64,000 bases of DNA from an uncultured Candidatus Poseidoniales archaeon (GCA_902625885.1 CACODE010000002.1:8454-72453); one strand, 5' to 3'; positions 41,284 through 64,000 are shown, counted from the stretch's first letter. The notes: generated by a model from the letters alone, not told the origin. Numbers and translations are program-made.

Positions 41284-41347
41284 CGTCAATGACCGGCTTC
41301 CATGCAATTAAGTGCAGGTCTCCCCTCGGACGTTTTGAGGGCTCAGC

Positions 41348-42958: not shown

Positions 42959-43000
42959 TTTTTCAATATAGAATTCAAATTTGCAATTGGAGATTTTGAC

Positions 43001-45378: not shown

Positions 45379-45845
45379 TGCAGCATGTCTTTGCATCCAA
45401 CGACGGCCCGATCGAGGTCGCGCTCGTAAAAGACGGGGAGGCGTACACACTCGAAGGCCACTCGGTGACCAAGCACAGCCACGGAAGGTTACGTCTGCTT
45501 CTGCGGAACGGTCGCACGTGCCTGGCCCATGTCGCTAAGGTTGACGATACCTGGTGGGTTCACCTCAACGGGCGCACGTTCCGCTGGGAGCGGGTGGAAC
45601 CCGGATCTTCCAGCGCCAGCGACGAGGGAGGCTTGGTTGCCCCCATGCCTGGAAAGGTGCTCGAAGTCCACGTCAATGAAGGGGACGTTGTTGAGGCTGG
45701 CGAGCCGTTAATGGTGCTTGAGGCGATGAAAATGGAGCACCGCATCGTTGCTTCTGAGGCAGGAAAGGTAACGGCTGTTCATTTTGGCGTTGGCGAACAG
45801 GTGGCTCAAGGTGCGACGCTTCTCGAGATAGAAGAAGCATCATGA
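45375..45845 (+). CDS. Biotin carboxyl carrier protein (separate biotinyl-domain subunit)
   Basis: C-terminal PMPGKVLEVHVNEGDVVEAGEPLMVLEAMKMEHRI with the biotinylation motif EAMKM. ATGA-type coupling to the biotin carboxylase gene. Confidence 0.85.
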   Translation: MMQHVFASNDGPIEVALVKDGEAYTLEGHSVTKHSHGRLRLLLRNGRTCLAHVAKVDDTWWVHLNGRTFRWERVEPGSSSASDEGGLVAPMPGKVLEVHVNEGDVVEAGEPLMVLEAMKMEHRIVASEAGKVTAVHFGVGEQVAQGATLLEIEEAS

Positions 45846-46709
45846 CGTCCAGCGCCCGTCCGGAACGACGCTGGCATGGTCCGGTATCGCGTTGATGATG
45901 TAGGTCCACGCCCAAACCGAACCGCTTGCCGTCCGAACGAGAACGGGAGCCCTGATGTAAAGCCCCTCGCTGGGGTCAAAGGCATTGTGCCCTTCAATCA
46001 CGTCGAGTTCCCCAAGTGCGCCAGCAAGATCGTCGGATCGATGAAGTTCACCGTGAACAACCCCTTGGTCGTCCGGTCGCAAACCCGGGTAAGCACCAAG
46101 GTCGTACAATCTTCCCATCACAGAACCACCTCGCACGGGCCCGCTCGACCAAGGTTCCAGCTGCGCCCATCGTTGACCGTGGTTCATGAGTGTCCCGTAG
46201 ACAAACAGGTGAGAAATCCATGGTTTGTTGGCTTTATTTTGTATTGCAAATTTCAAATGTTCAATTGGCAATTTGTAATTCCTCAAGCCGGTTTCAACAG
46301 TTTCTGCATACGCTGGGGTTGGGGGGACCAATTCGTCACGACGCATGTCCGGACTAACCGTGTAGGTGATCGCCTCCACAACATCACCTGCTGCGGTGAC
46401 CACAAACACAACCTGCCGCTGGTAATAGCGGGGACTGCCCTCTTTTTTGTCCATCCAAGACCAGCCTTCGTCCGACAAGGAAAACAGCACCCCCGGTACC
46501 GCCGTTCCTCTGCCGTTCTGCACCACGTCAGCTGCGCCACCGCCTCTGTTTCTGGAAAAATAGTGAAACGCCATGGAATGATCAAGGAGCCATGCTGTGC
46601 AGATTGGCTCCATCGAGGAAAAGTTGGCGCCGTTGCTCGAGGACCAAGCTTTCAGGTCGGCGGCGTTCAAATTCGACCCGTAGGCAAAGTAAGGGCGACG
46701 CTCGTCCAT
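45840..46709 (-). CDS. Tandem gamma-glutamylcyclotransferase (AIG2/GGCT-like) protein
   Basis: Two GGCT modules: YFAYGSNLNAADL... and LFVYGTLMNHGQRW...GRLYDLGAYPGL...VHGEL. ATG 46709 (MDERRPYFAYGSN) is preferred over track start 46814. Confidence 0.65.
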   Translation of the reverse strand: MDERRPYFAYGSNLNAADLKAWSSSNGANFSSMEPICTAWLLDHSMAFHYFSRNRGGGAADVVQNGRGTAVPGVLFSLSDEGWSWMDKKEGSPRYYQRQVVFVVTAAGDVVEAITYTVSPDMRRDELVPPTPAYAETVETGLRNYKLPIEHLKFAIQNKANKPWISHLFVYGTLMNHGQRWAQLEPWSSGPVRGGSVMGRLYDLGAYPGLRPDDQGVVHGELHRSDDLAGALGELDVIEGHNAFDPSEGLYIRAPVLVRTASGSVWAWTYIINAIPDHASVVPDGRWTS

Positions 46710-46819
46710 AGTCCGAGATGTCGCTGAGGGTATTTCAATCACCCACAAAGGCGCCAATCTGGTGCCGGGGAGATGGACGCTAAACGGACGGTTATAAGCA
46801 GGTAGAATGTGCAAAAATC

Positions 46820-49597: not shown

Positions 49598-50136
49598 ATC
49601 GGCGGACGGTCTTTTGGTTCACCAACATCGTTGGTCCGCTCATTTTGGTGTCCTATTGGCGAGGCGTCGGTGCATTTGATGACCCGCTGGTGTATTGGGG
49701 AGATGTACCACCCTCCATGCAGACCTTCATCGTCCCTTGGATGTTTGTTGCTGCAACGGGTTATCTGATGATGTTTCAACGGTTTTTCTTTGCGTGGAGT
49801 GAAGAAGAAATCGCTGCTCTTCACTGGCCGGGAGGCGTTGCCGATGGCCAGGGTGTCAGGCGACTGTTCATCTTGTACGCCGCTTTTCTTTTGACATCGA
49901 TGCTCTGGATAGATCTGACGCGGATGTACATCCTCTCGCCGTCAACGCTCGGAGCGGTTGTCGTTGTCGTCGTTCTGTGGATTGCCGGTTTGGCATCCGT
50001 TGGTTTCGGCGTGCTCGTTTGGCCGTCAAGGCACCGGCTGAAGGGCGCCAACATCGCTCTTGCGGGGTGCCTCATGCTCTCCATCCAGTGCACCGGTTGG
50101 GACGCCATCTATTGGGTGATGAATTTCGGTTGGTGA
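49594..50136 (+). CDS. Hypothetical membrane protein
   Basis: 180 aa, 5-6 hydrophobic segments, 4-nt overlap with the RND exporter stop. Confidence 0.5.
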   Translation: MNRRTVFWFTNIVGPLILVSYWRGVGAFDDPLVYWGDVPPSMQTFIVPWMFVAATGYLMMFQRFFFAWSEEEIAALHWPGGVADGQGVRRLFILYAAFLLTSMLWIDLTRMYILSPSTLGAVVVVVVLWIAGLASVGFGVLVWPSRHRLKGANIALAGCLMLSIQCTGWDAIYWVMNFGW

Positions 50137-50174
50137 GAACACGCGTTGAAATACACAACGGGTGAGGTGGAACC

Positions 50175-50795
50175 ATGAAGCCAATGCAGCGTTTCGTTTC
50201 GGGAATGATCGTCCTTCTGTTGCTCAGTGGGTGCACGGCGGCACCGTTTGAAGAGACGCCGACGCAGGAAGAGGAAGCGGTGTTGTCACCCGTTCCAGAG
50301 CGCCTCTCGTTCACGGCGCCCACGTTTGACCGGGTTGACGATAACGGCGCTCAGCACGACCTAAGAAACTCCTTTGATGGTCCCGTGCTGATGCTCTGGG
50401 TGGCTGCAGGTTGCAGTGGATGCCACGATTGGACGGCCATGCTGAGCGAAGAATTGGCGGCCGGCAACATCTCCAACACGACCAACATCGTCTCCGTTCA
50501 CCGCTACCCGTCCTTTGAGTCCACCGAGAAAGTGCAGGAGAGGTACACCACAAACAACACCAGTACCTACACGCCTTGGCCACTGCTTTTGCCTCCCGCC
50601 TCAACCAACGTCATCGACCTTGACACCGGCCGGATGACGGATGTCGAACTCTACCGTGCGTTCCAGAACCCCGTCACACCAACGTTGCAAGTCCTTGACG
50701 GCGACGGTCGTTTGGTCTGGACGTCGAAAACCTACTGGGCAAACGCCACCGTGTTGGAAGAAGCCCTGAGCATCATGAACCCGGATGGCGCGTGA
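50175..50795 (+). CDS. Thioredoxin-fold lipoprotein (TlpA/ResA-like thiol-disulfide oxidoreductase)
   Basis: Lipobox-like LLLLSGCTA and a CxxC active site in VLMLWVAAGCSGCHDW. 206 aa. Confidence 0.55.
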   Translation: MKPMQRFVSGMIVLLLLSGCTAAPFEETPTQEEEAVLSPVPERLSFTAPTFDRVDDNGAQHDLRNSFDGPVLMLWVAAGCSGCHDWTAMLSEELAAGNISNTTNIVSVHRYPSFESTEKVQERYTTNNTSTYTPWPLLLPPASTNVIDLDTGRMTDVELYRAFQNPVTPTLQVLDGDGRLVWTSKTYWANATVLEEALSIMNPDGA

Positions 50796-51249
50796 AATGG
50801 TCGCTTACATTGAGCTGCTTTTCTGGTTTTCAAGCCTCTACATCTTACCGTTTTGGCTGATGATGCTGTTCGCACCGCACAGCGAACGAACCGCCGCTAT
50901 GCTGCGAAGCGAGTGGATTTACCTCGCACCCCTTGCCGCAGCCTACTCGCTGGCCGTCCTGCCGCACCTGGGGGACATCTTGTTGCTGTTGGGCAGCGAC
51001 ATGCCCACGCCCGCCATCGTTTTGGAACTGTTCGAGAACGACGAGGTGGTCATTGTTGGATGGCTCCATTATCTGGCGTTCGATCTCTTCGTGGGGCGCT
51101 GGACATGGCAGCGTTTGACGCAGACCGAGAAACCGCTGTTGGTCTCGTTCCCAGTGTTGCTTCTGTCCATGATGGTCGCCCCTCTTGGTGCTCTGGTAGG
51201 CATGGTGGTGACGAGGGACGCAAAAGCACCCGCTGCAAACGATGCATGA
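50785..51249 (+). CDS. ABA4-like/DUF4281 family membrane protein
   Basis: 4 TM segments. LYILPFWLMMLFAP and WLHYLAFDLFVGRW motifs match my recollection of DUF4281. Confidence 0.5.
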   Translation: MAREMVAYIELLFWFSSLYILPFWLMMLFAPHSERTAAMLRSEWIYLAPLAAAYSLAVLPHLGDILLLLGSDMPTPAIVLELFENDEVVIVGWLHYLAFDLFVGRWTWQRLTQTEKPLLVSFPVLLLSMMVAPLGALVGMVVTRDAKAPAANDA

Positions 51250-51259
51250 ACAAAGGGTG

Positions 51260-51568
51260 CTAACGGAACAACGACCAGTTGTCCCTCCGCAAGCCTTCCA
51301 GCGCCACGCCCGTCAAACCACCCCAAACCCACGGGGATGCAACATCTACGGCGACCAGAACAAGCATGGCTAAGGCGGCGAGGATCCAGTGATGAACCCA
51401 AAACCGCCGGTTTCTAAGATGAAATTTCACGTTCTCCGTAAACCACCTCGCCCCGCTGAAGGCAAGAACGAGCGCGACGGAATAGAAGGCGAACTCCATG
51501 CGCCGACCTAAGGGGAGGTGGTATAATCCGCTTTCCATGGTCGCTACCGACAGCGGTGTGAACGCCAT
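51260..51568 (-). CDS. Hypothetical small membrane protein
   Basis: About 100 aa with 3 hydrophobic segments. The internal ATG avoids overlap with the divergent gene at 51644. Confidence 0.35.
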   Translation of the reverse strand: MAFTPLSVATMESGLYHLPLGRRMEFAFYSVALVLAFSGARWFTENVKFHLRNRRFWVHHWILAALAMLVLVAVDVASPWVWGGLTGVALEGLRRDNWSLFR

Positions 51569-51643
51569 ATCGGTACTGACTTGCGCTTCATTGTCTTTTT
51601 TCGGTTGCCCTAAATTTATGACCTCTTCATCCCTCGCAGAACC

Positions 51644-53923
51644 ATGGGCCTCTTTGAGGGACACAGGTTGACCATCGTCGGCGTGGTTTCGGCGCTCGTG
51701 CTGGTCTCCAGCCTCGGTTACGAGTTCCTTTCCGACCACGAAGAAGAGGTGAGTTTCAGCATTGATAACGACCTCATGATGAACGACATCAACGAGCTCG
51801 CTTCCTTTGGACCGAGAATTGCAGGTTCAAGTGAGGAAGCCGATGCCACAGCCTACATCAAACAGCGGTTTACGGACATGGGCTTGACCAACGTGAACAT
51901 TGAAACCTTTCCAGTCACCGGAACGTGGTTTGTCGATGCGGAGCCTGATGAGCACCAGATATTGATGCATGCGCAACTCGAGATGGGGGTGCAGAACGGT
52001 CCCGGCCTTCCCGACGGTACGGCGGGCTCCGGGCGCATCGCCGTTGATGAAACGGGGAACATCAACCACATTGAGTCCTTCACCTACCTCGGCTATTCGG
52101 GTGCGAATCACAAGCACGACAACATGTTGACGTTCATCGGTAACGGTTCCGCCGATGCGTTTGCGAACACGAACGGTGGCGACCTCACCGACCTAGCGAT
52201 CATGATCAACTACGACAACATGCGCAACCTGTCTGACATCTACAAGGACGCTATCGACCGGCAGGCTGGCGTGGTGATGATTTACACCGAAGGGGTTGAG
52301 ACCCCACCGTTCCGAAGCGTCACCGTTCAAGAAAACGGCGCCACTGTCCCGTTTCCTGACGCTTACAACGGCGACTATGCCGACCAACTCATTCCGTTCA
52401 TCTACATCTCTGAAAGCGTGGCCATGACCTTCCACGACTTCATTGAACAAGCAGCCGACGACCCCACGCTTTATGCCTCGTTGGACGGTTTTTGGGAAGG
52501 CAACAATGTCGGAACGAGGAACGTCCAAGTCGTCACTGCTGAACTCCCGGGAACGGGTGACGGCACCATTATGCTTGGAGCGCATCACGATTCCGCCTAC
52601 ATCAGCCCCGGGGCGGTTGACAACGCCGTGGGTGTTTCACAACTCCTTGAAATCGCCTCACAACTCAGCACGCTTGAGTTGGAATCCACCGTCAAATTTG
52701 CCACATGGGGTGGTGAGGAACTCGGCATGTTGGGTAGCCAAGCCTACATCAACGCCCACCAACAAGAAATTGACGACTTGGACCTTTACATCAACCTGGA
52801 CTCAACAAACCTTGACCCGCAGAAGGGATTGGGAACCCTCGGTATTGAAACCTCGGACGAGCGGTTGGTCGACTCCATTAGCGGCATCAAAAGCAGGGTT
52901 CTCGACCAGGGGAAATGGAACGATTACGCCGCCACCGTGGCGGTGAGCGATACGGGGAACAGCGACCACCGTTCGTTCAATCAACACGGCGTGACAACCG
53001 TTGGCTTGTTTGGATGGCAGTACGATGAAAACCATCGCCAGACCGACACCCCAAACATCGTCAATCAAGAGGGGCTTGACCTCGCCACGGAAATCGTGCT
53101 GCAGGTGGTCGTCGCCCAAGGCGGGCACCAAACCGGTTCGGAGCCACTGATTCAGATTTCTGGATTGGAAGGCGAATCTGAAAGCTGGGTGTTTCCGTTT
53201 GTCTTGGCGCTGTTGGCCGGCCTTGCCACGGGCATTGGCGGGCTCATCGTGTACATCGTGAAAGAGATCAGCGCCGAAATGATGGCGTTTCTTTTGGCCA
53301 TGGCTGCAGGCGTGATGCTTCTCGTGTCGGTGTTGGACCTTTGGCTCGGTCAAGCCGGGGAAAACGGCTTCCTTCCCATCACGCTTTCTTTCGGCGTAGG
53401 TGTCGCTCTCGTTCTGGGCATCAATCGATACACGGACAAACAAGAAGACGTCTCCAACATGACGCAGGAGAGAAAACTGTACCGGTCGGGTATTCTTACC
53501 GCCATTGCCCTCGCCATCCACAACTTCCCCGAAGGCCTCGCCATGGGTGTGGCGGTCCTGGAGTCGGCACAGTACGGTGTCGTGTTGATGGCCGCCATTG
53601 CGCTGCACAACATTCCGGAGGGCATCGCCGTTGCTGCCCCAATTCAGGCAGGTGGAGGTGGGCGGCTAAAGGCCACGATGATCGCCACCATGACCGGCTT
53701 CACCGAACCGCTTGGGGCGTTGTTTGCGCTGCTTGTTCTCGGCTCCATCCTTACACCGTTCATGGTTGGCTGTTCACTGGCGTTTGTTGGCGGCATCATG
53801 ACGGTCGTGGCCGCCAAAGAACTGATTCCACAAGCTCGCGCCCAAAACCGACCGCGATACATGGTCGTTGGTGCCGTCTTTGGGGCGGCCGTCATGCAGA
53901 TCAGTTTGCTCCTTCTTGCATGA
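51644..53923 (+). CDS. Fusion protein: extracytoplasmic M28-family zinc aminopeptidase plus C-terminal ZIP (ZupT-like) metal transporter
   Basis: N-terminal anchor, then M28 motifs (LGAHHDSAYISPGAVDNAVGVS, WGGEELGMLGSQAY, NLDS, NSDHRSF). From about aa 500 there are 7-8 TM segments with the ZIP signatures AIHNFPEGLAMGV and ALHNIPEGIAVAAP. Confidence 0.8.
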   Translation: MGLFEGHRLTIVGVVSALVLVSSLGYEFLSDHEEEVSFSIDNDLMMNDINELASFGPRIAGSSEEADATAYIKQRFTDMGLTNVNIETFPVTGTWFVDAEPDEHQILMHAQLEMGVQNGPGLPDGTAGSGRIAVDETGNINHIESFTYLGYSGANHKHDNMLTFIGNGSADAFANTNGGDLTDLAIMINYDNMRNLSDIYKDAIDRQAGVVMIYTEGVETPPFRSVTVQENGATVPFPDAYNGDYADQLIPFIYISESVAMTFHDFIEQAADDPTLYASLDGFWEGNNVGTRNVQVVTAELPGTGDGTIMLGAHHDSAYISPGAVDNAVGVSQLLEIASQLSTLELESTVKFATWGGEELGMLGSQAYINAHQQEIDDLDLYINLDSTNLDPQKGLGTLGIETSDERLVDSISGIKSRVLDQGKWNDYAATVAVSDTGNSDHRSFNQHGVTTVGLFGWQYDENHRQTDTPNIVNQEGLDLATEIVLQVVVAQGGHQTGSEPLIQISGLEGESESWVFPFVLALLAGLATGIGGLIVYIVKEISAEMMAFLLAMAAGVMLLVSVLDLWLGQAGENGFLPITLSFGVGVALVLGINRYTDKQEDVSNMTQERKLYRSGILTAIALAIHNFPEGLAMGVAVLESAQYGVVLMAAIALHNIPEGIAVAAPIQAGGGGRLKATMIATMTGFTEPLGALFALLVLGSILTPFMVGCSLAFVGGIMTVVAAKELIPQARAQNRPRYMVVGAVFGAAVMQISLLLLA

Positions 53924-53974
53924 AGGCTCTAGGCATTTGACCATGTCTAAATAGCATGCTGAGGAGGGTTTGCC

Positions 53975-54166
53975 ATGACCACCGGTGCCAAAGTCGGCTG
54001 CAGCCACTGCGATACGGAAGCGGCCACAAACCACTACCATGGTCCAGGTCTCAAGCGCATACCGCTGTGCAGAACTTGCTACGACCAGTACGTCGCCAAA
54101 GAGATGGTTGCGTACTGGAAAGACCACATCGCTGAGGAACAACGCCGAGCAGGAACGTCCTCCTGA
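53975..54166 (+). CDS. Small zinc-ribbon protein
   Basis: 63 aa with CSHC...CRTC. Preceded by gaggaggg. Confidence 0.4.
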   Translation: MTTGAKVGCSHCDTEAATNHYHGPGLKRIPLCRTCYDQYVAKEMVAYWKDHIAEEQRRAGTSS

Positions 54167-54287
54167 ACGGCTCAACCGGAGATAATGCACCACTCAGAGC
54201 CTGCGAGGCAAAAGTCGCGGGCGATTTCATCGCTGTTTAGAGTGTTAGAAAAAAAACAATCCTATTAACGCAAAAAGAATTGGTTCC

Positions 54288-55172
54288 GTGGTCATGAGGG
54301 ACCGTGTCCACGACGCTGTTTTGGGCAACCAAACCGACGCGTTCTTGAGAAAATGGGCCATCAATCTGGCGATTGTCGGATTTCTTCTCCACCTTGTCGC
54401 CTGCACGATTTACAACCTAACGGGTGGGTTTCTCGAAGGGACGGCGCCGTTTGTCGATTCTTATCTTGATGCCCTGTACACGCCCTTTTCCATTATTCTG
54501 GCCTACGAGGTCTACGAACTCATCAAAGCGATTCCGGAATCGTTTTCCAACTCGATCGGTAAGCAATTCGAGGTCATCACGCTCCTCGTCGTTCGTGATA
54601 TTTTCAAAAATCTCGCCGACATCAATGCGACGGCTGCCTCCACCGTGGATTCCGACGTGGCCTTCGTCGCCACCGAAGCTTTGGCGTTCGTCGTTCTGTT
54701 CACCACCGCCCTGTACTTCCGTTCAACAACGCAAGGCGGGAACGAGGGTGAGCTACAAGACGACGCCGTCAAGATGTTCGTGATGCAAAAGAAGGACCTC
54801 GCCTGCGCTCTTGCCGTCGCCTACGTCTGCGTGGCGGTGTATTCGATCACGTCGTGGTCCTACGGCGTGTTGGAGGGCGATAACGATTTGAGCCGCACCG
54901 TGTTTTTCGCCAATTTCTTCACCTTGCTCATTCTGTCAGACATCATCATCCTTCTCGTGTCCTACAAGCACATCACGGATTTCCCTCAACTGGCCAGAAA
55001 CACGGGGTTCGTGCTGTCCACCGTGGTGGTTCGTGTCGGTATTGCCACGCCCGGTTTCACCGGTGCCGTGCTGTTCATTCTCTCGGCCGTTCTCGCTTCT
55101 GTGGTGCTTAAGCTCAGCATCCTCTCCGAGGATAAGGCCGAACCCTCACCAGTCGAGGCCAACCCGGTTTGA
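54288..55172 (+). CDS. Hypothetical polytopic membrane protein
   Basis: 294 aa, about 6 TM segments, GTG start in the track. Confidence 0.5.
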   Translation: MVMRDRVHDAVLGNQTDAFLRKWAINLAIVGFLLHLVACTIYNLTGGFLEGTAPFVDSYLDALYTPFSIILAYEVYELIKAIPESFSNSIGKQFEVITLLVVRDIFKNLADINATAASTVDSDVAFVATEALAFVVLFTTALYFRSTTQGGNEGELQDDAVKMFVMQKKDLACALAVAYVCVAVYSITSWSYGVLEGDNDLSRTVFFANFFTLLILSDIIILLVSYKHITDFPQLARNTGFVLSTVVVRVGIATPGFTGAVLFILSAVLASVVLKLSILSEDKAEPSPVEANPV

Positions 55173-55182
55173 GACGTGGGAG

Positions 55183-55201
55183 AGCAATTCGATTGCTTTT
55201 C
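55183..55201 (+). terminator. Hairpin plus T-run after gene 54288..55172
   Basis: agcaat-tcg-attgct followed by tttt. Confidence 0.35.
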
Positions 55202-55242
55202 AAACAATGCATTAAGAATAAAAACTCAGGAATGCAAAGCAA

Positions 55243-55455
55243 ATGAAGAACGTTGGTGGCAAGGAAAGAGCCCTACGAGCCGTGTTTGGTTCGTTTGTTG
55301 TGGTTGCTGATTTTCTTGCAAACGTGCAGATTGAGATTCTGTTCCTCATCGTTGGCTTGTGGGGTGTGCTCACCTCTGCCTTCGGCTACTGCCCGTTTAA
55401 TTGGATGCTGAACCGAAACACCTGCGCCATCGACATCCCAGCGGCTCAGGCCTGA
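55243..55455 (+). CDS. DUF2892/YgaP-like small membrane protein
   Basis: NVGGKERALRAVFG...GYCPFNWML pattern typical of DUF2892. 70 aa. Confidence 0.6.
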   Translation: MKNVGGKERALRAVFGSFVVVADFLANVQIEILFLIVGLWGVLTSAFGYCPFNWMLNRNTCAIDIPAAQA

Positions 55456-55521
55456 TCGATGATTTGGCGTCTACCTCATCGTGGTCGAGCGTCCACTCAC
55501 AGGAAATCTTGGCGAGATAAA

Positions 55522-55866
55522 TCAGGATTGTTCGGCAGGGTTTGATTGGTTGCTGAACAGGATGCTCGCCGTTGCGTTAAACAGGATGTCCTCGGGAATT
55601 TCAAAACCCGCAGCAACGAACGAATGGATGATGTCGGTTTCTCGTTCCTTGTAGGCTTTTGATGAACGAAACGCCTCCAACGTCATCTCGTCCATCCACC
55701 GTGTGAAGACGATGATTCGCTCGCTGTCTTCGGCAAACGTTGACCCGACGCATCCCTGTTCAACGGCAGCCGACAGAAAATCCACCATGGCACCGTGCAT
55801 TTCAGACGTAATTGTTCTGTCGAATTTGTTGGTGATCCACATCCTGATGACGGGCGAGGTATCCAT
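55522..55866 (-). CDS. Hypothetical protein, possibly ABM-like (dimeric alpha/beta barrel)
   Basis: IIVFTRWMDEMTLEAFRSSKAYKE is reminiscent of antibiotic-biosynthesis-monooxygenase domains. Weak call. Confidence 0.3.
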   Translation of the reverse strand: MDTSPVIRMWITNKFDRTITSEMHGAMVDFLSAAVEQGCVGSTFAEDSERIIVFTRWMDEMTLEAFRSSKAYKERETDIIHSFVAAGFEIPEDILFNATASILFSNQSNPAEQS

Positions 55867-56016
55867 GCTCTGCCCACGGCATGAAGCCATTTACGCTTTC
55901 CTGTTGGGGTCTTTGTTAGAAGAAAACAGGCCCATTCAAAATGCACGAGGGGACCTTTCCATGGGTAGCGTCTGAAAAGGCCCACAGCAAGCCCTATGAT
56001 TTGCCAATTCCTGAGC

Positions 56017-56041
56017 AATGGGCATTCGGATAGACCCTCTG
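56017..56041. repeat. Left terminal inverted repeat of the cassette
   Basis: See the cassette entry. Its inner 11 nt (CCCTCTGCTTA, 56035-56045) are also the perfect inverted complement of TAAGCAGAGGG at 56389-56399. Confidence 0.7.
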
Positions 56042-56088
56042 CTTATACGTATAGAATGGTATATCAGTGATTTATTGGTGGAACATAC

Positions 56089-56385
56089 ATGGACATCTTT
56101 TCGATTATTGTATTCGTAGTATGTGTCCTTGTTGTTAGAGCAAAGGTGTTCAATGGTTATTTTGTTGAGAGGCAGTTTAACCCAATTCAGCGTTTTTTGA
56201 TTTCATTTCTTCTTGGGATTATGATTGTGATTGTTGTGAATGTAGTTGGATTACTGATCGCAATTCTTGAGTTGGTGGGTGGAGATGATTACTTCAATAT
56301 TTTTTCAACTACATTGACTTTGACTGGCCTTTCCACCAGAGATATTGCTGCTAAAATTTCTAGTTTTTTGAAAACTAGCGACTGA
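56089..56385 (+). CDS. Small 3-TM membrane protein (cassette gene 1)
   Basis: 98-aa AT-rich ORF flanked by the 11-nt inverted repeat pair 56035-56045 / 56389-56399. Confidence 0.5.
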   Translation: MDIFSIIVFVVCVLVVRAKVFNGYFVERQFNPIQRFLISFLLGIMIVIVVNVVGLLIAILELVGGDDYFNIFSTTLTLTGLSTRDIAAKISSFLKTSD

Positions 56386-56388
56386 AAC

Positions 56389-56408
56389 TAAGCAGAGGGC
56401 CCCCTCTG
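56389..56408. repeat. Hairpin CAGAGGG-cc-CCCTCTG
   Basis: 7-bp stem and 2-nt loop, immediately after the stop of gene 56089..56385. Confidence 0.7.
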
Positions 56409-56449
56409 ATTAAATGGGTAGGCAAAGGGTACGGACTGATGACCCGTCT

Positions 56450-56470
56450 AATCAGAGGGACCCTCTGATT
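56450..56470. repeat. Perfect 21-nt palindrome AATCAGAGGG-A-CCCTCTGATT (likely bidirectional terminator)
   Basis: Lies between convergent genes and overlaps the stop codon of gene 56470..56730 by one nucleotide. Confidence 0.75.
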
Positions 56471-56730
56471 CACTCTGCGTCTTTCGCCTCTGCAATTTCT
56501 TCCTTCTCAACAACGGCGAGATAGTATGATGTTACGATGTTAAGCGCACCAAAAATAATCAAAATAAGACCGAGGAGGCGAGTATTAACAGCAACGAGTT
56601 CTGACAAGTTCGGATCATCAACAATATTCCCGAAAATTGGACTGTTCATCATGAAAGCAATGCCCATCACAATAAGGACAACCTTGCCCGCCAATTCGTT
56701 CACAAACCTCTTCAGGGCACTTTCCGACAT
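56470..56730 (-). CDS. Small 2-TM membrane protein (cassette gene 2)
   Basis: 86 aa. VVLIVMGIAFMMNSPIF and LLGLILIIFGALNIVTSYYLAVV segments, with an acidic C-terminus. Confidence 0.5.
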   Translation of the reverse strand: MSESALKRFVNELAGKVVLIVMGIAFMMNSPIFGNIVDDPNLSELVAVNTRLLGLILIIFGALNIVTSYYLAVVEKEEIAEAKDAE

Positions 56731-56835
56731 GTTTCATCCACAATGCACATGCATCATGAAGATATTGATGATGACCGAAAATTATCGTTGAGGCGAAAAT
56801 GTGGTGGTTTAAGCAGTAAATCAAAGGGTAAATGC

Positions 56836-56907
56836 ACAAACCCACTGCTCCGTTTTGACCCAATCAGAGGGCTTGCAGTGGGCTTTGTCATAGCCTACCC
56901 TCTGATT
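56836..56907. repeat. Nested inverted repeats upstream of the AIPR gene
   Basis: ACAAACCCACTGC (56836-48) pairs with GCAGTGGGCTTTGT (56875-88, one indel). AATCAGAGGG (56862-71) pairs with CCCTCTGATT (56898-907). Confidence 0.7.
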
Positions 56908-57044
56908 CGTACCAGTTTAATCAGTGTGTTGAACAATTATTTCAATGGCGAGGCCGCGCTCGTGACGGGATTCGCCGTCGATGAAGTCGCTGACTTTGGA
57001 CATGTAAATCCCAATTATGACGCTTATTTCAACACTTTGAGCAG

Positions 57045-57054
57045 AAATATAATT
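57045..57054 (+). promoter_or_regulatory. Candidate TATA box for the AIPR gene
   Basis: aaatataatt, 36-45 nt upstream of ATG 57090. Confidence 0.25.
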
Positions 57055-57089
57055 AGAATCATTGAATAACACGGCACCTATGCGATGTC

Positions 57090-59054
57090 ATGGATGTTGC
57101 AGAGTGCCAAGATTACTATCTTGAGTGGAGTGGCCATCATCGAGATGATGTCCCAGCACATATAGCCGCTGATAAAAAACAAAAAAGAGCACTCGAATGT
57201 ATGTTGATGCGAGATGTGATTTATTCTGAATTCGGTATCAGAATAGAATATGCAACTGCGCTGAACGATTTTCTTCGTTATGACGGACCAGGGGATGGAG
57301 GATGCGATGAGCATATCATCGATGATGTGGGCCAAAGAGTAATTTTAATCCAATCAAAAATGAGCGATATAGCTCCAGATGGTTCGTGGACAATGGACTA
57401 CCATATGGATGCGGGGGAGTTGAGCCGTATTGAAACATTTGTCGACAATATACTGGCAGGAACTGCCAAAACAGAGGTTTCGGCAGTACGAACAATCGCC
57501 GCTGGATCAACACGGGAAACTGAGTTGCACGACAGGATCGATCAAATTCATGCAGCCATTAATGGCGGATACGATGTATGTCTAGTTCAGTTGTGCTCTG
57601 GCACTTTTGCCGGACATTGGGAAGCAACCCAAAAACCTGCGATTGTAGCAAAAGGTTGGGATGGTCGCGCTATTGGTTTGGAAGATATCGCTCATTGTGC
57701 AACTGAAGCATTGCAATTAGATGCAACTGGTGGAGCACCAGACCCTATTACACTTAATTTCATCACATCTCATAGTTCAACTGATGACGATGATATTATT
57801 CACGGATTCATTACTGCCTCTTCTCTTGATTCTGCTGTATATCAGGAGGGGTGGAAACTAACGCGCCAAAATCTGCGTCATTTTAAGGGAACAAATGCAA
57901 CAGCAGCCAATTCTGGAATGGTGGAGACACTGAATAACTGTCCTGAAAAATTCCACTTATTTAACAATGGATTGCGGATTACGTGTAGTGCAATGGAAAA
58001 AATCCAGGATACCACAGAAGCAGGTGCTGCTGGGAACATCGATGTTGAAGAGTGGCAAATCGAGAATGCGCAAATCGTAAATGGGGGGCAAACTAGTTTC
58101 TCGATTCGAAGATATAACGGACCATCGAATCTTGTTGATGTCAAAATTGGTTGTGTCCTCATTAAGGAAGAAGATGAAGGGGTGTTGAGGAATATCGCTA
58201 GATATAGCAATACCCAAGAAGCGCTGGATGATTGGGACTTCCACGCAGATAGTGATGAATTACTGCTGTTGAAGGACAACATTGACTTAATTCAATTTGA
58301 TGTCTTGGGGCATCAAAAATCATTCTATTTTGATCAAAAATCAGGTGCCTTTGAATTCCTAAGTCCAGCAGAAAAACAACAATACAGGATCCAAAGAAAT
58401 GCTGGAAAGGCGATCCACTACCGGTTGCACCCTTCTGATTTCGCCAAAGCAAGTTTAGTGATTAATAGTGAGCCATCTGTTGCAAAATCTTCCGCTAAAA
58501 AATTTCACTCTACCAGTGCAACAGGAAGATATAATGATATTTTTGTTAACCAACCTTACTCGCCAAAACCTGTGCTCTACACAATGATTTTGCTTCATCG
58601 TTGTAAAGCACTATTGAAGACTCAAGTTGACGCTGGTGCTCCAGCATTCTACAATCAAGCGGTAGCGCACCTGTCAAGTCTGTTCCTAGACTTCATCCTT
58701 AAAATCTGCAACGATGATCTTGACGATTGGAACGACACAATAGAAGGATACTTCGATGCAATAGTGTGGCATGATGGTGCTCAGGGCAAAAAGATCAACC
58801 AACTCGGTTGTGAAAAATTTGATCTCTGGTTCAACACAATTATAGCAACATGGGGCGCACACATGCATGGTACTCATTCGGTCGCTTTACAAACTCCCAA
58901 CTCTTATTTCAACGGTGAAACCTCATACACCCATTGTAGCACTTGGTTGGATGCGTGGATAGTAGGCAACCAAGCAGCGCCACATCCACTTGCAGCTCAA
59001 CCCCAGTTTGCAGGACAAAACATGCAAGATGCAATTAATGCACAGTTTGTTTGA
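57090..59054 (+). CDS. AIPR-family abortive-infection phage-resistance protein
   Basis: 654 aa. N-terminal nuclease-like motif GDGGCDEHIIDD...VILIQSKM. Central NLRHFKGTNATAANSGMVETLNNCPEKFHLFNNGLRITC and IVNGGQTS match my recollection of the AIPR (PF10592) core (NNGITI, IVNG.QT). Confidence 0.75.
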   Translation: MDVAECQDYYLEWSGHHRDDVPAHIAADKKQKRALECMLMRDVIYSEFGIRIEYATALNDFLRYDGPGDGGCDEHIIDDVGQRVILIQSKMSDIAPDGSWTMDYHMDAGELSRIETFVDNILAGTAKTEVSAVRTIAAGSTRETELHDRIDQIHAAINGGYDVCLVQLCSGTFAGHWEATQKPAIVAKGWDGRAIGLEDIAHCATEALQLDATGGAPDPITLNFITSHSSTDDDDIIHGFITASSLDSAVYQEGWKLTRQNLRHFKGTNATAANSGMVETLNNCPEKFHLFNNGLRITCSAMEKIQDTTEAGAAGNIDVEEWQIENAQIVNGGQTSFSIRRYNGPSNLVDVKIGCVLIKEEDEGVLRNIARYSNTQEALDDWDFHADSDELLLLKDNIDLIQFDVLGHQKSFYFDQKSGAFEFLSPAEKQQYRIQRNAGKAIHYRLHPSDFAKASLVINSEPSVAKSSAKKFHSTSATGRYNDIFVNQPYSPKPVLYTMILLHRCKALLKTQVDAGAPAFYNQAVAHLSSLFLDFILKICNDDLDDWNDTIEGYFDAIVWHDGAQGKKINQLGCEKFDLWFNTIIATWGAHMHGTHSVALQTPNSYFNGETSYTHCSTWLDAWIVGNQAAPHPLAAQPQFAGQNMQDAINAQFV

Positions 59055-59385
59055 TAATAGTGAGATTTGTTCTTAAGAGAATCCTATGTGTTTCTCACAT
59101 TTCAAGTCTCGATATCTAGAAAGTCCTTGCACGCATCAATTGCTTGACGTTCATGTCGGCCATACCTTGGGACTTCGGCTATTTCTAAGATATCAATCGC
59201 GCTTAGATAACCAGAGTTATGAGTGGGTTAAGCAATAGTTTCAATGGATTTTCATTCGCCTCAAAGCGGGTGTGCAGTGACTACCGACTGCCAACCCTGT
59301 TTGGCAAAGGGGGGCCCTTTGCTAAGCTGGTAAAATGGACTGCTGCCTATACACGTTTTTTTTGCCTTTTTCTACTAAATACATC

Positions 59386-59395
59386 TATTTTAAAT
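59386..59395 (+). promoter_or_regulatory. Candidate TATA box for gene 59418..59900
   Basis: tattttaaat, 23-32 nt upstream of ATG 59418, suggesting a leaderless or short-leader transcript. Confidence 0.3.
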
Positions 59396-59417
59396 CAAAA
59401 CTGTGCATAGAAACTTT

Positions 59418-59900
59418 ATGTCAAGCTTAGGGTTCTTGGCAGATATTACCATAATTATTGTTGGTTTTATTTTACTCTACAAATTCCGTAAGCCGATTGC
59501 AAAACTATTTGCAAGAATTCCGCTCTCTGCAGTTTTTCTTGCTCCTCTTGTTTCGCTTCCGTTTATCTTTCTTGAAGAAACTATCAATTGTATGGATTCT
59601 GGCGACGGGCTCGGTTGTCGGATGACAACATGGATCAATGTTGTTCTTCTCATTCAAGTGTTTATTTTATGTCTGATTGTCCATAAGAAAAAAATGACTG
59701 ATATTAAGTGGCCATTATTCTGGTATGCGGTAATTGGAGTTATTTGGGAGATGACTCTTGGTGGATTATCTGTACTTGTTTTAACACTGAATCCCTTCAT
59801 GTTATTCATGGGTCCATATGTGATGGTGAGTTATGCGTTTTTAGCAGTAATTCCACTCACAATTGTGGTTTTACGTAATACTGTATATTCCGAAGATTAG
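59418..59900 (+). CDS. Five-TM membrane protein (cassette gene 4)
   Basis: AT-rich ORF. The track starts at GTG 59403; ATG 59418 (MSSLGFLADITIIIVGFILLY) is preferred. Confidence 0.5.
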   Translation: MSSLGFLADITIIIVGFILLYKFRKPIAKLFARIPLSAVFLAPLVSLPFIFLEETINCMDSGDGLGCRMTTWINVVLLIQVFILCLIVHKKKMTDIKWPLFWYAVIGVIWEMTLGGLSVLVLTLNPFMLFMGPYVMVSYAFLAVIPLTIVVLRNTVYSED

Positions 59901-59920
59901 TGATTAGTTTAGGGTCTTGT

Positions 59921-59945
59921 CAGAGGGTTTATCCGAATACCCATT
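59921..59945. repeat. Right terminal inverted repeat of the cassette
   Basis: cagagggtttatccgaatacccatt is the reverse complement of the left repeat at 23 of 25 positions. Confidence 0.7.
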
Positions 59946-59970
59946 ACTCTGGTATTAGCAAATCAAAGTA

Positions 59971-59989
59971 CTTGCAGTGGGTCTTGTCA
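59971..59989. repeat. 19-nt direct repeat copy, partner at 56872-56890
   Basis: cttgcagtgggtcttgtca versus cttgcagtgggctttgtca (17/19). In addition, gggtcttgtcaga occurs exactly twice, at 59912-59924 and 59979-59991. Confidence 0.65.
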
Positions 59990-60049
59990 GACGCTACTCT
60001 CGATGACGTATAGGAATACGAGGGGAGCCCTTGGAAACGAACCTTCTGC

Positions 60050-62890
60050 TCAATTCGCTTCCCAAAACGGGCTTTCTTTGCTCGTCTCTTCCTGCAGATC
60101 TCGGTCGTAGACCAAGTAGGTGGTGTCGTGCGTTTCAAAACGGTTGATGTCACCGACCTTATGCTGATGTTTGATTTTGCTGCTGGTGATTTTTTTGGTG
60201 AATTCGTTTCGGTGATCGGGAACGAGGCCGTTGAGGCGCTGGCCGTCAAATTCAGCCTCCTTCATCCAAACCTCCTCTTTGCTGTCGGCACGAAGTTCGA
60301 AGTCCACGCGTTGCTGCAAGGTGTAGCCGCCGTCAGAGAAGAGACGGAGGCTCCAAGGACCCTGTTCTTGGCCGGGGAGGGTGGCGTTGCTGACGTCAAT
60401 GTCTCTCAGGTAGCGCCAGCGGTCGCCGTGGTTGCGGTCGTCCGCATTCACCGGATACAGGCCCACCCAGGCATCGTTGTGCCCGGGAGGGTTGGTGATC
60501 TTGAATCGGACGGGTTGACGGTGGTTGAAGGACAGGACCTCAAGGTTCGGATTCGCATTGCTTGAGGCTCCAGTTTTCGCCACGGACGAGTGCCCTTCCT
60601 TGGACTTCATTCCTATCGTGGCGGTAAGAACTATCACTAGTGCGCCAATACTAAACATTACCGCACCCGGAATCAACATGGCGAGTCTGCCTTCGCCCGT
60701 GGATATGGATCCTATGATGAGAAGCGGTAAACCCATGATGACCAAGGTAATGCCAACGCCCGTGGCAGCGACCGCTCTTCTCTTGGAGGATGAGGAAGGC
60801 ATGGATTTGAATCCCATATTCAGGAGGGCGAACAGGCTAACAATGAACGTAAAGCCGCCTATACCCATGAATATGGCGCCGGGAATAAGCATCCCAAGGA
60901 CTTCCTTCTTCTCCTCGTTTTGAATCCACATCATGACCTCGCCACCATCGGAGTTTTGTGCCGTGATGGTGGTCGTGCCGGCCATGCAACCGTGGCATGC
61001 TCGTCCAATCTTGATGAGCTCTCTTCCATCGTGATAGCGCGATTCGGGCCAAGCGCCATCCATAGTGCTGCAGCCACTCCCCTCGTGTGCAGTTTCGAGA
61101 TAGAACACCTGTCGGGTTTCGTCTGGAGCGTTGACGCTCTGATACCCCGTCCACGGGTCAGACATCCAGCTTCCAGAGTGGGTGGCGTTCACGATGATGT
61201 TTTCACAGTGGTCATAGATGCCGTTTGAATTGAAATCGACGGCGCTCCCCTCGACATAAATTCCCCATCCTAAATCGCCTTGCCCGTCGCTGTCTTTGAT
61301 TTCCAAGGTTGCGGAGGTCATGCCGTCGCTGAGGCCCTCACCCAATCCGGCGATAAACAAAGGAACGCTCGGTGCGAGCAGAACCATACCGATGAACAAG
61401 GCGATTAATGCCGACCGCCGACTTGATTCCAGGATGGCTGGGTCAACCGGTTCAGGCGGCTTCACATCGAAGTCTTTCCGTTCGTGGAGGGCGTGCCCTC
61501 CGTTGGAGAACACCCGTATGCTCCAAGGGCCTGCTGCCCGCTTGGGGAACGACACGTTGTTGACATCGATGTTGCGAAGCCATTTCCATCGATGGTTTTC
61601 CGCTCCGTGGTCCTGGTCGCTGGCGTTTGGCGGGTAGATGCCGACCCACGCGTCGTGGTTGGTTGGAGGGTTGTTGATCTTGAAACGAACGGGTTTGTTG
61701 GCCACGGCTTCCAGAATTTCAATCGATTCCCTCGCTGATGATACCGCCTTGCTCGAGTGGATTTTATGCGCCGTGTGGATGGTGACATCTTTTCGTTGGA
61801 CCAGCGTGTATCCGCCGTCTGAAAAGACACGTATGCTCCAATCGCCAGCAGTCAACTCCCCGTTTGATAAGGATACGTTGTTAACGTCAACATCCCTAAT
61901 GTATTTCCACCGAGGAGGCGCCCCATGATCCTGATCGCTTGCACCCGTTGGATAGATGCCCACCCAAGCATCGTTGTGGCTTGGGGGATGGTTCAATTTG
62001 AAGCGGACAGGTTTACCCAGCACGGCTTCCAGCACCTGAATTGGTTCGCCTGAAGCAGACGTGGAGGTACGGCTTTTGTTGAGGTGCCGCTGAATTCGAG
62101 ACGCAGCGTCGGACGCTTGGTCGCCGTGCCTGACCGTTGGCGCGGGATGTGCGCCACCGGGTGCTCCCGGATGACCCCAGTCAACATTTTCCCATACGCC
62201 TTCACGCGGGGGAACACCGATCTTTCCACCGGTATGCGCAGCATAGAGAACCCCTGCTCTTGAGATGATCATCCACTTCCTCCACTCCGGGCGTTGATGG
62301 TAAGGACCGGTGTCTTGGAAAGCGATGAAAATCTCAGGGTTCTGAGTATGCTGGTAATGGCCGGCGATAGTGCTGAAGTGTCTATTCTCATGTTTGCCGG
62401 GCATGAACTCATAGTTCCCGTTCACTTCCGGACTTCCGGCTTGAGCGACGATTACATACGAGGGCATAGATGCTGTAGTTGTTGCAGGGTGTTGTTGACC
62501 TGTAGCGCCCTGCTGCACGAACTGGATGTCTTCCCAGCCCCCAGGGGGCGCATGGTCCCGGTTCCACTGTGCCGTGCCATCAGACTGCGCGCTCAGGTAC
62601 TTCCCGTGGCAGGACTTCAAACAGACCGTGTTGTTGCCACGGTCTTCAACGCTGAACTCCTCCCAGCCATTTGGCGGTGCCGATCGGCGATTGATTTGCA
62701 CGCTGCCGTCGGGCTGTGCTGAAACATACATGCCGTGGGCGCCCCTGAGGGTGATTTTACCGCCTGGCCGCTCCTCAACGTGGAAGTACTCCCACGCACT
62801 TGCAACAGGTCTGTTCCATTCAGCGCGCCCGTCAGGCTGTGCGCTCAGAAACTTCCCGTGTACGCTGCGAAGCGACACGATACCCGACAT
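60050..62890 (-). CDS. Large 4-TM protein: N-terminal fascin-like beta-trefoil, unassigned domain, three ~88-aa repeats, Cys-rich ectodomain
   Basis: 946 aa. Three ~40-aa trefoil repeats (LRSVHGKFLSAQPDGRAEWNR / LRGAHGMYVSAQPDGSVQINR / LKSCHGKYLSAQSDGTAQWNR). Repeats with PVRFK(L/I)(N/T)(H/N)PP..(N/H)DAWVG(I/L)YP...D..HG..(R/H)(W/R)(K/R/W)...(D/N)(V/I)DV.N..(L/F/T)...(D/G/P)(P)WS(I/L)R(V/L)FS(D/N)GG at aa 283-371, 389-476 and 782-865. TMs at about aa 493-516, 665-690, 708-729 and 736-760. Confidence 0.7.
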   Translation of the reverse strand: MSGIVSLRSVHGKFLSAQPDGRAEWNRPVASAWEYFHVEERPGGKITLRGAHGMYVSAQPDGSVQINRRSAPPNGWEEFSVEDRGNNTVCLKSCHGKYLSAQSDGTAQWNRDHAPPGGWEDIQFVQQGATGQQHPATTTASMPSYVIVAQAGSPEVNGNYEFMPGKHENRHFSTIAGHYQHTQNPEIFIAFQDTGPYHQRPEWRKWMIISRAGVLYAAHTGGKIGVPPREGVWENVDWGHPGAPGGAHPAPTVRHGDQASDAASRIQRHLNKSRTSTSASGEPIQVLEAVLGKPVRFKLNHPPSHNDAWVGIYPTGASDQDHGAPPRWKYIRDVDVNNVSLSNGELTAGDWSIRVFSDGGYTLVQRKDVTIHTAHKIHSSKAVSSARESIEILEAVANKPVRFKINNPPTNHDAWVGIYPPNASDQDHGAENHRWKWLRNIDVNNVSFPKRAAGPWSIRVFSNGGHALHERKDFDVKPPEPVDPAILESSRRSALIALFIGMVLLAPSVPLFIAGLGEGLSDGMTSATLEIKDSDGQGDLGWGIYVEGSAVDFNSNGIYDHCENIIVNATHSGSWMSDPWTGYQSVNAPDETRQVFYLETAHEGSGCSTMDGAWPESRYHDGRELIKIGRACHGCMAGTTTITAQNSDGGEVMMWIQNEEKKEVLGMLIPGAIFMGIGGFTFIVSLFALLNMGFKSMPSSSSKRRAVAATGVGITLVIMGLPLLIIGSISTGEGRLAMLIPGAVMFSIGALVIVLTATIGMKSKEGHSSVAKTGASSNANPNLEVLSFNHRQPVRFKITNPPGHNDAWVGLYPVNADDRNHGDRWRYLRDIDVSNATLPGQEQGPWSLRLFSDGGYTLQQRVDFELRADSKEEVWMKEAEFDGQRLNGLVPDHRNEFTKKITSSKIKHQHKVGDINRFETHDTTYLVYDRDLQEETSKESPFWEAN

Positions 62891-63122: not shown

Positions 63123-64000
63123 ATGCTAAAAATTGAATCCACACCCGCAAAAGTTTGCCTCGGCATTTCGGCTTTTCTGTTCCTGCTTTACTCGGTCACG
63201 TTCATGTTCTTTTCCATGGGATACGTGACCGGGGGCGACACCGGCTTTGCGCTCCTCGACAACGGTCTTGCTGGCATGCTTGAAGACCCTGCCTACGGCA
63301 AGGGTGGCGTTGAGAGCAGCTTCAACGGCGTGCTCTTCTTTGGGATTTTCATCTCCACCATGCTCATTTTCTTTGAAGGGGCCAAAGGCAAGTGGACCAT
63401 CATGCTGCCCGTCATCATCGGCAGCATCACCATGACGGCCTGCATCTGGTTGAATTGGAACCCGGACAGCGAGGCAAGCGCGGCCCCAAAGTACGTTTCA
63501 ATCCTCGTGACGCTGGTTTACATTGGCGCTTACGCACTGTTGCGTGAAGAGGGCGTCAACGAGGGTTTGTCGGATTACAAGCCGGGGTTGAAGGTCAACG
63601 ACAAAGTGGCCATGCTGGCGCTCGTCCTCCTTGTGTTGTCGGGGTTGTACTATGCCTTGCGAATGATCTTCACGCCCGACGACGTAATTGCTCAAGGTTT
63701 CCCGGCGGGCGAGGAGTGGGTGAGTAAACTTGACGACACTCCAGGTTTGGGAGCACCGCTACCTACTACGGTGTCGGTGACCGGTGCCATGATTCTCGTG
63801 TACACGCTCTGGTCAGCGCTGGTCCTCACCGACGGTGCCAAAGGCAAGTGGACAGTCATGCACCCCTCTGCCATGGCCTTCATCGCTGCCACGGTCTCCA
63901 CGTACGTCGGACTCGTGGCCGGCCTATCACGGACGACCAGCGACACCAACAAGATGGATGTGTTGACGATTCCTCTGGTGATGCTTCTGGTCCTCATCAG
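63123..64000 (+). CDS. Hypothetical polytopic membrane protein with internal duplication; 3' end runs off the window
   Basis: Own translation from ATG 63123 is open to the window end, so it is missing from the ORF track. Duplicated segments GAKGKWTIMLPVIIGSITMTA and GAKGKWTVMHPSAMAFIAATV. Confidence 0.6.
   Translation, partial: MLKIESTPAKVCLGISAFLFLLYSVTFMFFSMGYVTGGDTGFALLDNGLAGMLEDPAYGKGGVESSFNGVLFFGIFISTMLIFFEGAKGKWTIMLPVIIGSITMTACIWLNWNPDSEASAAPKYVSILVTLVYIGAYALLREEGVNEGLSDYKPGLKVNDKVAMLALVLLVLSGLYYALRMIFTPDDVIAQGFPAGEEWVSKLDDTPGLGAPLPTTVSVTGAMILVYTLWSALVLTDGAKGKWTVMHPSAMAFIAATVSTYVGLVAGLSRTTSDTNKMDVLTIPLVMLLVLI

Follow-up and report, generated by a model that had tools for sequence, protein, structure and literature searches.

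A ~95-nt structured repeat as the probable end of small mobile gene cassettes in Poseidoniales archaea

The window analyzed here, a 64,000-nt stretch from an uncultured Candidatus Poseidoniales archaeon (GCA_902625885.1, CACODE010000002.1:8454-72453), contains an island of about 4 kb with a GC content of about 0.40-0.44 (genome GC, 0.55), and the left part of this island is crowded with the motifs CAGAGGG and CCCTCTG. What are these motifs, and what do they do at the gene boundaries where they occur? The preliminary description regarded them as one shared recognition or structure motif, serving a recombinase, a regulator, or a terminator, and suggested modular assembly of gene cassettes. Our analysis identifies the motifs as the arms and inner half-sites of one ~95-nt structured repeat (hereafter the unit) rather than as independent elements. 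This repeat probably forms the ends of small mobile gene cassettes in the Poseidoniales.

Motif search located CCCTCTGCTTA at 56035-45, TAAGCAGAGGG at 56389-99, CAGAGGGccCCCTCTG (palindrome 1) at 56393-408, a perfect 21-nt palindrome (palindrome 2) at 56450-70, AATCAGAGGG at 56862-71, and CCCTCTGATT at 56898-907, all where the preliminary description had placed them, and the core indeed ends the right terminal repeat (CAGAGGG, 59921-27). The claim of at least five core copies within 900 nt is borne out by seven copies of CAGAGGG in 873 nt of the window, where 0.098 would be expected from the 187 copies on both strands of the whole assembly (1,664,726 nt; Poisson, ~1.6e-11). Likewise, five of the seven genome-wide copies of AATCAGAGGG lie inside the cluster. 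Together, the motif positions and these genome-wide counts rule out chance clustering. One detail needed amendment, as the inverted repeats of the fourth site had been called nested but are interleaved, in the order ACAAACCCACTGC (56836-48), AATCAGAGGG, GCAGTGGGCTTTGT (56875-88), and CCCTCTGATT, with AATCAAAGGG (56819-28) as the partner enclosing both inverted repeats. A further palindrome, CAAAGGGGGGCCCTTTG, lies at 59305-21. Folding, another check suggested at the outset, returned strong structures at 56385-56475 (-40.8 kcal/mol, z = -4.8) and 56816-56910 (-37.3 kcal/mol, z = -4.9), and z-scores across the tested sites range from -4.8 to -5.8. Rfam 15 gave no match at E values up to 1 for window positions 54000-62000, and neither a tRNA nor a known RNA family was found as the identity of the sites.

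Alignment of 61 distinct unit copies from many genomes is nearly without gaps over a length of ~95 nt. The unit has a 5' arm AATCARAGGGT and a 3' arm CTACCCTYTGATT (in the other notation used for this alignment, the pair AATCARAGGGT / ACCCTYTGATT), and its inner heptamers are CCCAYTG, CARAGGG, and an invariant CAGTGGG. The heptamer CARWGGG is present five times per unit (forward, reverse, forward, forward, reverse); heptamers 1 and 2 form an inverted pair with a 12-nt spacer, heptamers 4 and 5 form another with a 14-nt spacer, and both spacers are fixed. From this arrangement, the inverted pairs look like candidate binding sites for recombinase dimers. Three alternative helices involving ACCC are mutually exclusive, and each displays co-variation with some compensatory changes. 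In our reading, the co-variation reflects half-sites that serve as double-stranded binding sites and change in concert; a single RNA or single-strand fold would also be compatible with the data. Mini-palindromes of the form CARWGGG-N0-6-CCCWYTG occur nine times in the genome and not once with a reversed-pattern control; units are present in the islands of six of the nine. Five relatives encode 1-7 of them per genome, most within ~1 kb of a unit, and four of those in relatives lie ~10 nt past the outer end of a unit. In one subfamily (alignment A5), conservation reaches ~25 nt further upstream of the 5' arm (TGATTCAATCGTTATTCTAACG), an extension that includes the small inverted repeat TGATTC/GAATCA, and the unit there may be ~120 nt long.

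BLAST and nhmmer searches identified six units in this genome, three of them on other contigs, and all six are located exactly at the drop in GC into low-GC islands. A covariance model built from these six copies detected units in 46 of 61 relatives, often at contig ends and numbering 1-11 per genome. BLAST searches with the island found unit matches in 121 of the 401 genomes of the order, including 109 among the 199 genomes of the window's own family and 11 among the 199 of a second one. All of these are incomplete metagenome-assembled genomes (MAGs), the assembly under study being 70% complete, and related genomes are non-independent samples, so that the statistics given here and below are overstated. 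An exact-pattern scan of species-representative genomes returned almost only MAGs of Poseidoniales, Poseidoniaceae, and Poseidonia; a collection of viral contigs held no exact match to the unit core, and a literature search found no description of the ~95-nt repeat. The existence of one such repeat family across many genomes of the order goes beyond what had been read from the window.

The window holds three units, one collapsed pseudo-unit, and one mini-palindrome. The left terminal unit (55954..56048, minus strand; covariance model R1, 92.7 bits, E 3e-22) points its 5' arm CAGAGGG toward the island (CCCTCTG at 56035-41 on the plus strand) and has a degenerate outer arm; GC drops here from about 0.51 to 0.40. 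The right terminal unit (59914..60008, plus strand; R1, 93.7 bits) also has its 5' arm (59921-27) toward the island, and GC climbs to 0.55 beyond it. The two are 84% complementary over 77 nt (55965-56041 / 59921-59997). The internal unit (56815..56909, plus strand; R1, 97.2 bits) is the best-folding copy (-37.3 kcal/mol, z -4.9), with heptamers CAAAGGG at 56822-28, CCCACTG at 56841-47, CAGAGGG at 56865-71, CAGTGGG at 56877-83, and CCCTCTG at 56898-904, so that two of the previously noted motifs are its third (56865-71) and fifth (56898-904) heptamers. This internal copy (56821-56902) belongs to the same repeat family as the 77-nt terminal inverted repeats, and the direct repeats at 56872-90 and 59971-89 are parts of the internal and right units in the same orientation. 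The pseudo-unit (56389..56470, symmetric and assigned to neither strand; fold -40.8 kcal/mol, z -4.8) combines palindrome 1 (56393-56408), an 18-nt inverted repeat (56402-19 / 56442-59), and palindrome 2 (56450-56470), and it matches the unit model weakly at 56418-56474 on the minus strand (16.8 bits). It serves as the end common to cassettes 1 and 2, and the homologous module in G032 begins exactly at 56393.

At least three cassettes make up the island (55954-60008), a composite that lacks a recombinase gene. Cassette 1 would consist of the left unit, a gene for a 98-aa predicted membrane protein (ORF at 56089..56385, plus strand; no Pfam or PADLOC family), and the pseudo-unit. Cassette 2, which appears to be independently mobile, would run from the pseudo-unit through the gene for an 86-aa predicted membrane protein (56470..56730, minus strand; a mobile module found in at least five genomes) to the internal unit. 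The third segment would carry as defense cargo the gene of a 654-aa AIPR-family (AbiU/MzaE-like) putative abortive-infection protein (57090..59054, plus strand; PF10592, 110.7 bits; PADLOC AbiU, 2e-15), which has no homologue in 200 genomes of the family. It continues with the mini-palindrome CAAAGGGGGGCCCTTTG (59305..59321, found by pattern scan in the non-coding interval before the next gene), the gene for a 165-aa predicted membrane protein (59403..59900, plus strand) with its stop codon 14 nt from the right unit, and the right unit itself. A weak unit-like match (20 bits, E 0.024) was also seen at the far end of the window (63864-64000) and beyond (G000:C2:72401-73600; L012 3444-3538), where a low-GC patch of ~1.2 kb starts at the very end of the window and may be another small cassette.

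The polarity seen in the island holds across the family. GC is lower on the 5' (CAGAGGG) side in 34 of the 43 copies that could be tested (mean difference, -0.065; Wilcoxon p 6e-6). Adjacent units on a contig are arranged (-)(+), with 5' ends face to face, in ten pairs and (+)(-) in one, the others having the same direction; in several relatives the inward-facing pairs enclose sharply bounded low-GC inserts of 1.2-2 kb. The unit and the cargo gene at its 5' arm share a strand in 26 cases, with the gene's stop codon about 10-17 nt from the arm, and are on opposite strands in 27, with the gene's start codon about 55-105 nt away. Since cargo is found in either orientation, the unit is best understood as a border at the DNA level and not as a consistent terminator or promoter. 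Among the three roles considered in the preliminary description, that of a recombinase site fits best; given both cargo orientations, those of terminator and regulator fit poorly.

Cargo varies by place and includes lipoproteins, small membrane proteins, zinc-ribbon proteins, and single GIY-YIG and HNH genes. When the surroundings of units were searched for another enzyme or for conserved cargo, the only recurrent products were esterase-like and pentapeptide-repeat lipoproteins. The other unit-bordered islands of this genome (L008 4184-6458 on G000:C3, L009 4429-5438 on G000:C12, and L010 5092-6434 on G000:C1) encode secreted lipoproteins, two of them esterase/PHB-depolymerase-like as read by eye and two with pentapeptide repeats, and similar lipoproteins are also present as cargo in relatives.

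Segments of the island recur in other genomes. Positions 56393-56907 (pseudo-unit, 86-aa gene, and internal unit) are matched in G032:C62, from the same genus, at 93% nucleotide identity, and positions 56423-56906 in G186:C14, from another genus, at 97%; further matches are found in G069 (56386-56555, 86%) and G009 (56434-56789, 82%). The 86-aa protein differs by one amino acid between the window and the G032 copy. The 165-aa gene segment (59282-59831) is matched at 95% in G279:C15 (another genus; GC 0.30-0.35), and the same identity was obtained for 59378-59529 in G028:C90 and for 59875-60005 in G305:C220, where homology stops at the outer end of the right unit. Core genes nearby (window 40000-54000) show 65-76% identity to the same genomes. 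The 93-97% identity of the 86-aa and 165-aa modules, compared with these core values, indicates that the modules moved recently between species and genera, in line with the earlier suggestion of a shared boundary motif and modular cassette assembly. In every comparison, homology terminates at a unit's outer arm or a palindrome, at or inside the unit, as expected of modular cassettes; at the internal unit it stops after CTACCCTCTG, and among 59 copies the sequence information past CTACCC is zero after 7 nt.

No consistent direct repeat indicating a target-site duplication was found around 12 unit pairs, the direct match ACGAGGGGA beside the island of the window being a single case among the 12, and the relatives compared showed no empty site or conserved target; excised or circular forms were not encountered either. 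A search for an empty site through the ABM (antibiotic biosynthesis monooxygenase-like) gene on the left flank failed on the rarity of this gene (3 of 60 genomes); G028 and G027 have different neighbors and no unit there. A target-like palindrome of the two outer blocks (GGGTAG N2-24 CTACCC) showed no enrichment over control. Cargo at a given chromosomal place can differ between species. Beside an M28 peptidase gene this was seen in G000 (the genome of the window), G032, and G023, and next to the gene of a 463-aa membrane protein in G000 and G028. The M28-type peptidase gene lies upstream of the unit-bounded island in all three genomes (L061 2559-4324, G032:C62; L044 2333-3863, G023:C18; window 51644-56048), and the G032 and G023 islands directly abut it, which looks like a recurrent insertion place.

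The variable positions of the unit fall into two linkage blocks (columns 17-64 and 81-94), with strong linkage within each. The two blocks reassort freely, with 12, 4, 12, and 10 copies for the four possible pairings of 5' and 3' variants (Fisher p 0.31). The 86-aa modules of the window and G186 are 97% identical, yet the block type switches directly after GCAGTGGG. This pattern points to exchange at or beside the invariant fourth heptamer, and it could have been left by either site-specific crossover or homologous exchange.

A candidate enzyme came from G032, where the 86-aa module adjoins an HNH gene and a truncated serine recombinase gene. Full-length relatives of 262-263 aa combine a resolvase catalytic domain (PF00239) with the start of PF07508 ("Recombinase"), the former scoring 109-111 bits together with PF07508 in L076, L077, and L217. 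The nearest solved structures are a DNA invertase, the TP901-1 integrase catalytic domain, and gamma-delta resolvase. In all 12 recombinase loci with sufficient upstream sequence (one genome locus and eleven metagenome contigs), the start codon is preceded, at a distance of 182-187 nt, by the end of a unit or diverged unit in (-) orientation, and this fixed distance in complete relatives is further support for modular cassettes. One complete element is found on the metagenome contig Ga0209603_1012465. It opens with unit(-) at 88-183 and a recombinase gene at 365-1153, continues with a lipoprotein gene, a type II restriction enzyme and methylase, and a 328-aa gene, and closes with a second recombinase gene on the other strand (4665-5453) and unit(+) at 5636-5730.

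The 262-aa family has no member in the assembled 70% of this genome, and recombinase matches were found in 9 of 60 genomes of the genus, compared with units in about three quarters. The genome's only resolvase-domain gene, encoding a 307-aa protein (C2:84420-85343, ~16 kb downstream of the island and outside the window), was considered as a helper from elsewhere and rejected, as the best nearby unit match reached 7.8 bits (E 5). Beyond the catalytic domain that both share, its product shows no detectable similarity to the 262-aa enzyme, and a search of 60 relatives yielded no homologue; the gene is strain specific, of normal GC, and probably from a different mobile element. The single tyrosine recombinase gene of the genome is ~64 kb away, with no convincing unit nearby (best, 11.2 bits, E 0.6).

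Several related loci deserve mention in their own right. In L079 9610-16039 (G083:C3), a serine recombinase of 311 aa that shares 46% identity with the cassette enzyme adjoins a type I restriction specificity subunit and HsdR (read by eye), which could be a specificity-switching arrangement. L214 566-5854 (metagenome contig OCZA010001802.1) carries three successive (-) units separated by cargo, in an integron-like layout, and a recombinase gene starts 187 nt after the third. In L037 1431-1595 (G058:C20), two units overlap tail to tail, (+) then (-), which brings two CAGTGGG heptamers into inverted orientation 28 nt apart; a circle junction was considered for these overlapping units and rejected because the spacing is incompatible.

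In the reading that we consider likely, the units mark cassette borders, with the CAGAGGG end toward the cargo, and complete elements carry the 262-aa serine recombinase gene 182-187 nt inside a unit. The model starts from direct observations: there is a repeat family with a defined polarity and a link to low-GC cargo, modules have passed between genera, and the recombinase gene lies at a fixed distance from a unit. Judging from sequence comparison, the recombinase may act on the units themselves, cutting and rejoining DNA within them near the invariant GCAGTGGG. In this way cassettes would be inserted, removed, or exchanged, arrays would grow beside units already in place, and cassettes lacking a recombinase would be moved by a copy encoded elsewhere. 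Against this reading stand the rarity of the 262-aa family relative to the units and the expectation that a serine recombinase acting on inverted sites would invert DNA and not excise it; the recombinase could also itself be cargo that travels in these islands. More tentatively, the whole may be a cassette-capture system of the Poseidoniales' own, driven by a truncated serine recombinase, integron- or SCC-like in function and mechanistically distinct; we regard this wider reading as possible, and as somewhat less than an even chance.

Other explanations would dispense with such an enzyme. The unit could be a selfish MITE- or REP-like miniature repeat that spreads by itself and lands preferentially in AT-rich foreign DNA or at its edges; the cassettes would then not be mobilized through it, and its linkage to the recombinase would be incidental. 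A short sequence with terminal inverted arms, present in several copies, often at contig ends, and mostly in islands without a recombinase would suit this description, but we consider it unlikely. Copy number is low (1-11 per genome), target duplication was not found, and the units travel with their cargo at 93-97% identity; independent insertion does not predict the strict polarity toward cargo and the inward-facing pairs, and an incidental linkage does not account for a recombinase gene at 182-187 nt in 12 of 12 loci. The Y1/HUH transposase, the enzyme linked to REP sequences, was not found in this genome. It is also quite unlikely that the palindromes and units act as RNA, whether as terminators, as hairpins stabilizing 3' ends, or as small RNAs insulating horizontally acquired genes. 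The window alone would encourage such a reading, with palindrome 1 starting 7 nt past the stop codon of the 98-aa gene, palindrome 2 overlapping that of the 86-aa gene, and the right unit 14 nt past that of the 165-aa gene, and so would the fold z-scores of -4.8 to -5.8 and the presence of some compensatory changes. Across the family, however, half of the units are at gene starts and not at ends (27 versus 26), no T-run follows the hairpins, no Rfam family matches, and co-variation in three mutually exclusive helices fits double-stranded half-sites better. A role as RNA would also leave the module borders and the recombinase linkage unexplained.

The reassortment of the two unit blocks and the different cargo at the same places (beside the M28 peptidase gene in G000, G032, and G023 and the 463-aa gene in G000 and G028) bear on a third possibility, that units anchor ordinary homologous recombination, by which incoming unit-flanked DNA replaces resident cargo and no dedicated recombinase takes part. 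The identity of units between genera (75-95%) is a further point in its favor, but ~95 nt at 75-90% identity make a poor substrate, the strict internal spacing and heptamer pattern suggest recognition by a protein, and the fixed distance between recombinase gene and unit has no explanation in these terms. We judge this account improbable.

The Poseidoniales, or Marine Group II archaea, are abundant worldwide and uncultured, and the routes by which their variable genes move are poorly known. If the proposed reading is true, a multi-subsite site of ~95 nt would allow single-gene cassettes, defense genes included, to be inserted, stacked, and exchanged across genera in one of the ocean's most abundant archaeal groups. 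It offers a concrete and testable recombination system. The end sequence, the covariance model, and the candidate enzyme make the mobile gene pool of the Poseidoniales searchable in metagenomes, and the many units at contig ends would explain why assemblies break at these islands. Defense genes are found as unit-bounded cargo both here (the AIPR gene) and in a relative (the type II restriction-modification pair).

How do these elements compare with known systems? The Charybdis elements of Poseidoniales are ~4.6-kb circles with the hallmark protein Gp3, some of them integrated next to tRNA genes, and were rejected as the identity of the cassettes, being a different kind of element (bioRxiv 10.1101/2025.08.03.668216). 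MITEs and MITE-flanked composites share short non-coding repeats with inverted arms that flank cargo in inverted orientation, most copies having no enzyme inside. The comparison with MITE and REP families, proposed in the preliminary description, nevertheless recovered arms but no target duplication (12 pairs), along with a low copy number, conservation across genera of the order, and no parent insertion sequence with a DDE transposase. As for REP/RAYT (REPIN) systems, PF01797 was not found in this genome, and units number 1-11 per genome. The res sites of Tn3/gamma-delta and the hix/gix sites are closer in architecture, with ~100 bp, several inverted half-site pairs (here with fixed spacers of 12 and 14 nt), a position beside the recombinase gene, and DNA invertase and gamma-delta resolvase among the nearest structures of the linked enzyme. 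However, res sites are direct repeats that resolve cointegrates and DNA invertase sites flank one fixed segment, whereas the units bound diverse transferable cargo at many loci.

Integron cassettes (IntI, attI, and attC) resemble the present ones in being small, often with a single gene and a structured imperfect palindrome of 60-140 nt, and in forming arrays of mostly unknown cargo with the recombinase gene beside the first site. They differ in that the enzyme linked here is of the serine type, not an IntI-type tyrosine recombinase, and that the arrays are of mixed orientation, (-)(-)(+)(+), with cargo on the same strand in 26 cases and the opposite strand in 27; attC core sites (RYYYAAC/GTTRRRY) are absent from the 61 distinct unit copies aligned. 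Serine-recombinase cassette systems are, to our knowledge, little described in archaea. The SCC elements of staphylococci (SCCmec, with CcrAB/CcrC serine recombinases) share variable cargo, often for defense or resistance, as well as inverted-repeat ends, tandem or composite arrays, and pseudo-elements lacking a recombinase. Among NCBIfam models, the 262-aa enzyme is most similar to CcrB (80.8 bits, far below the cut-off of 900), the match covering only the N-terminal ~247 of 542 positions. The C-terminal half of large serine recombinases comprises zinc-ribbon and coiled-coil parts, and the 262-aa enzyme is without this half of CcrB. Further differences are the ~95-nt multi-heptamer units at the ends, the archaeal host, and the use of at least four chromosomal sites in one genome here versus one site in rlmH. 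Without the defining features of integrons, MITEs, or REP sequences, the units and their cassettes are probably best classed as a variant among serine-recombinase cassette elements, functionally like SCC or integrons.
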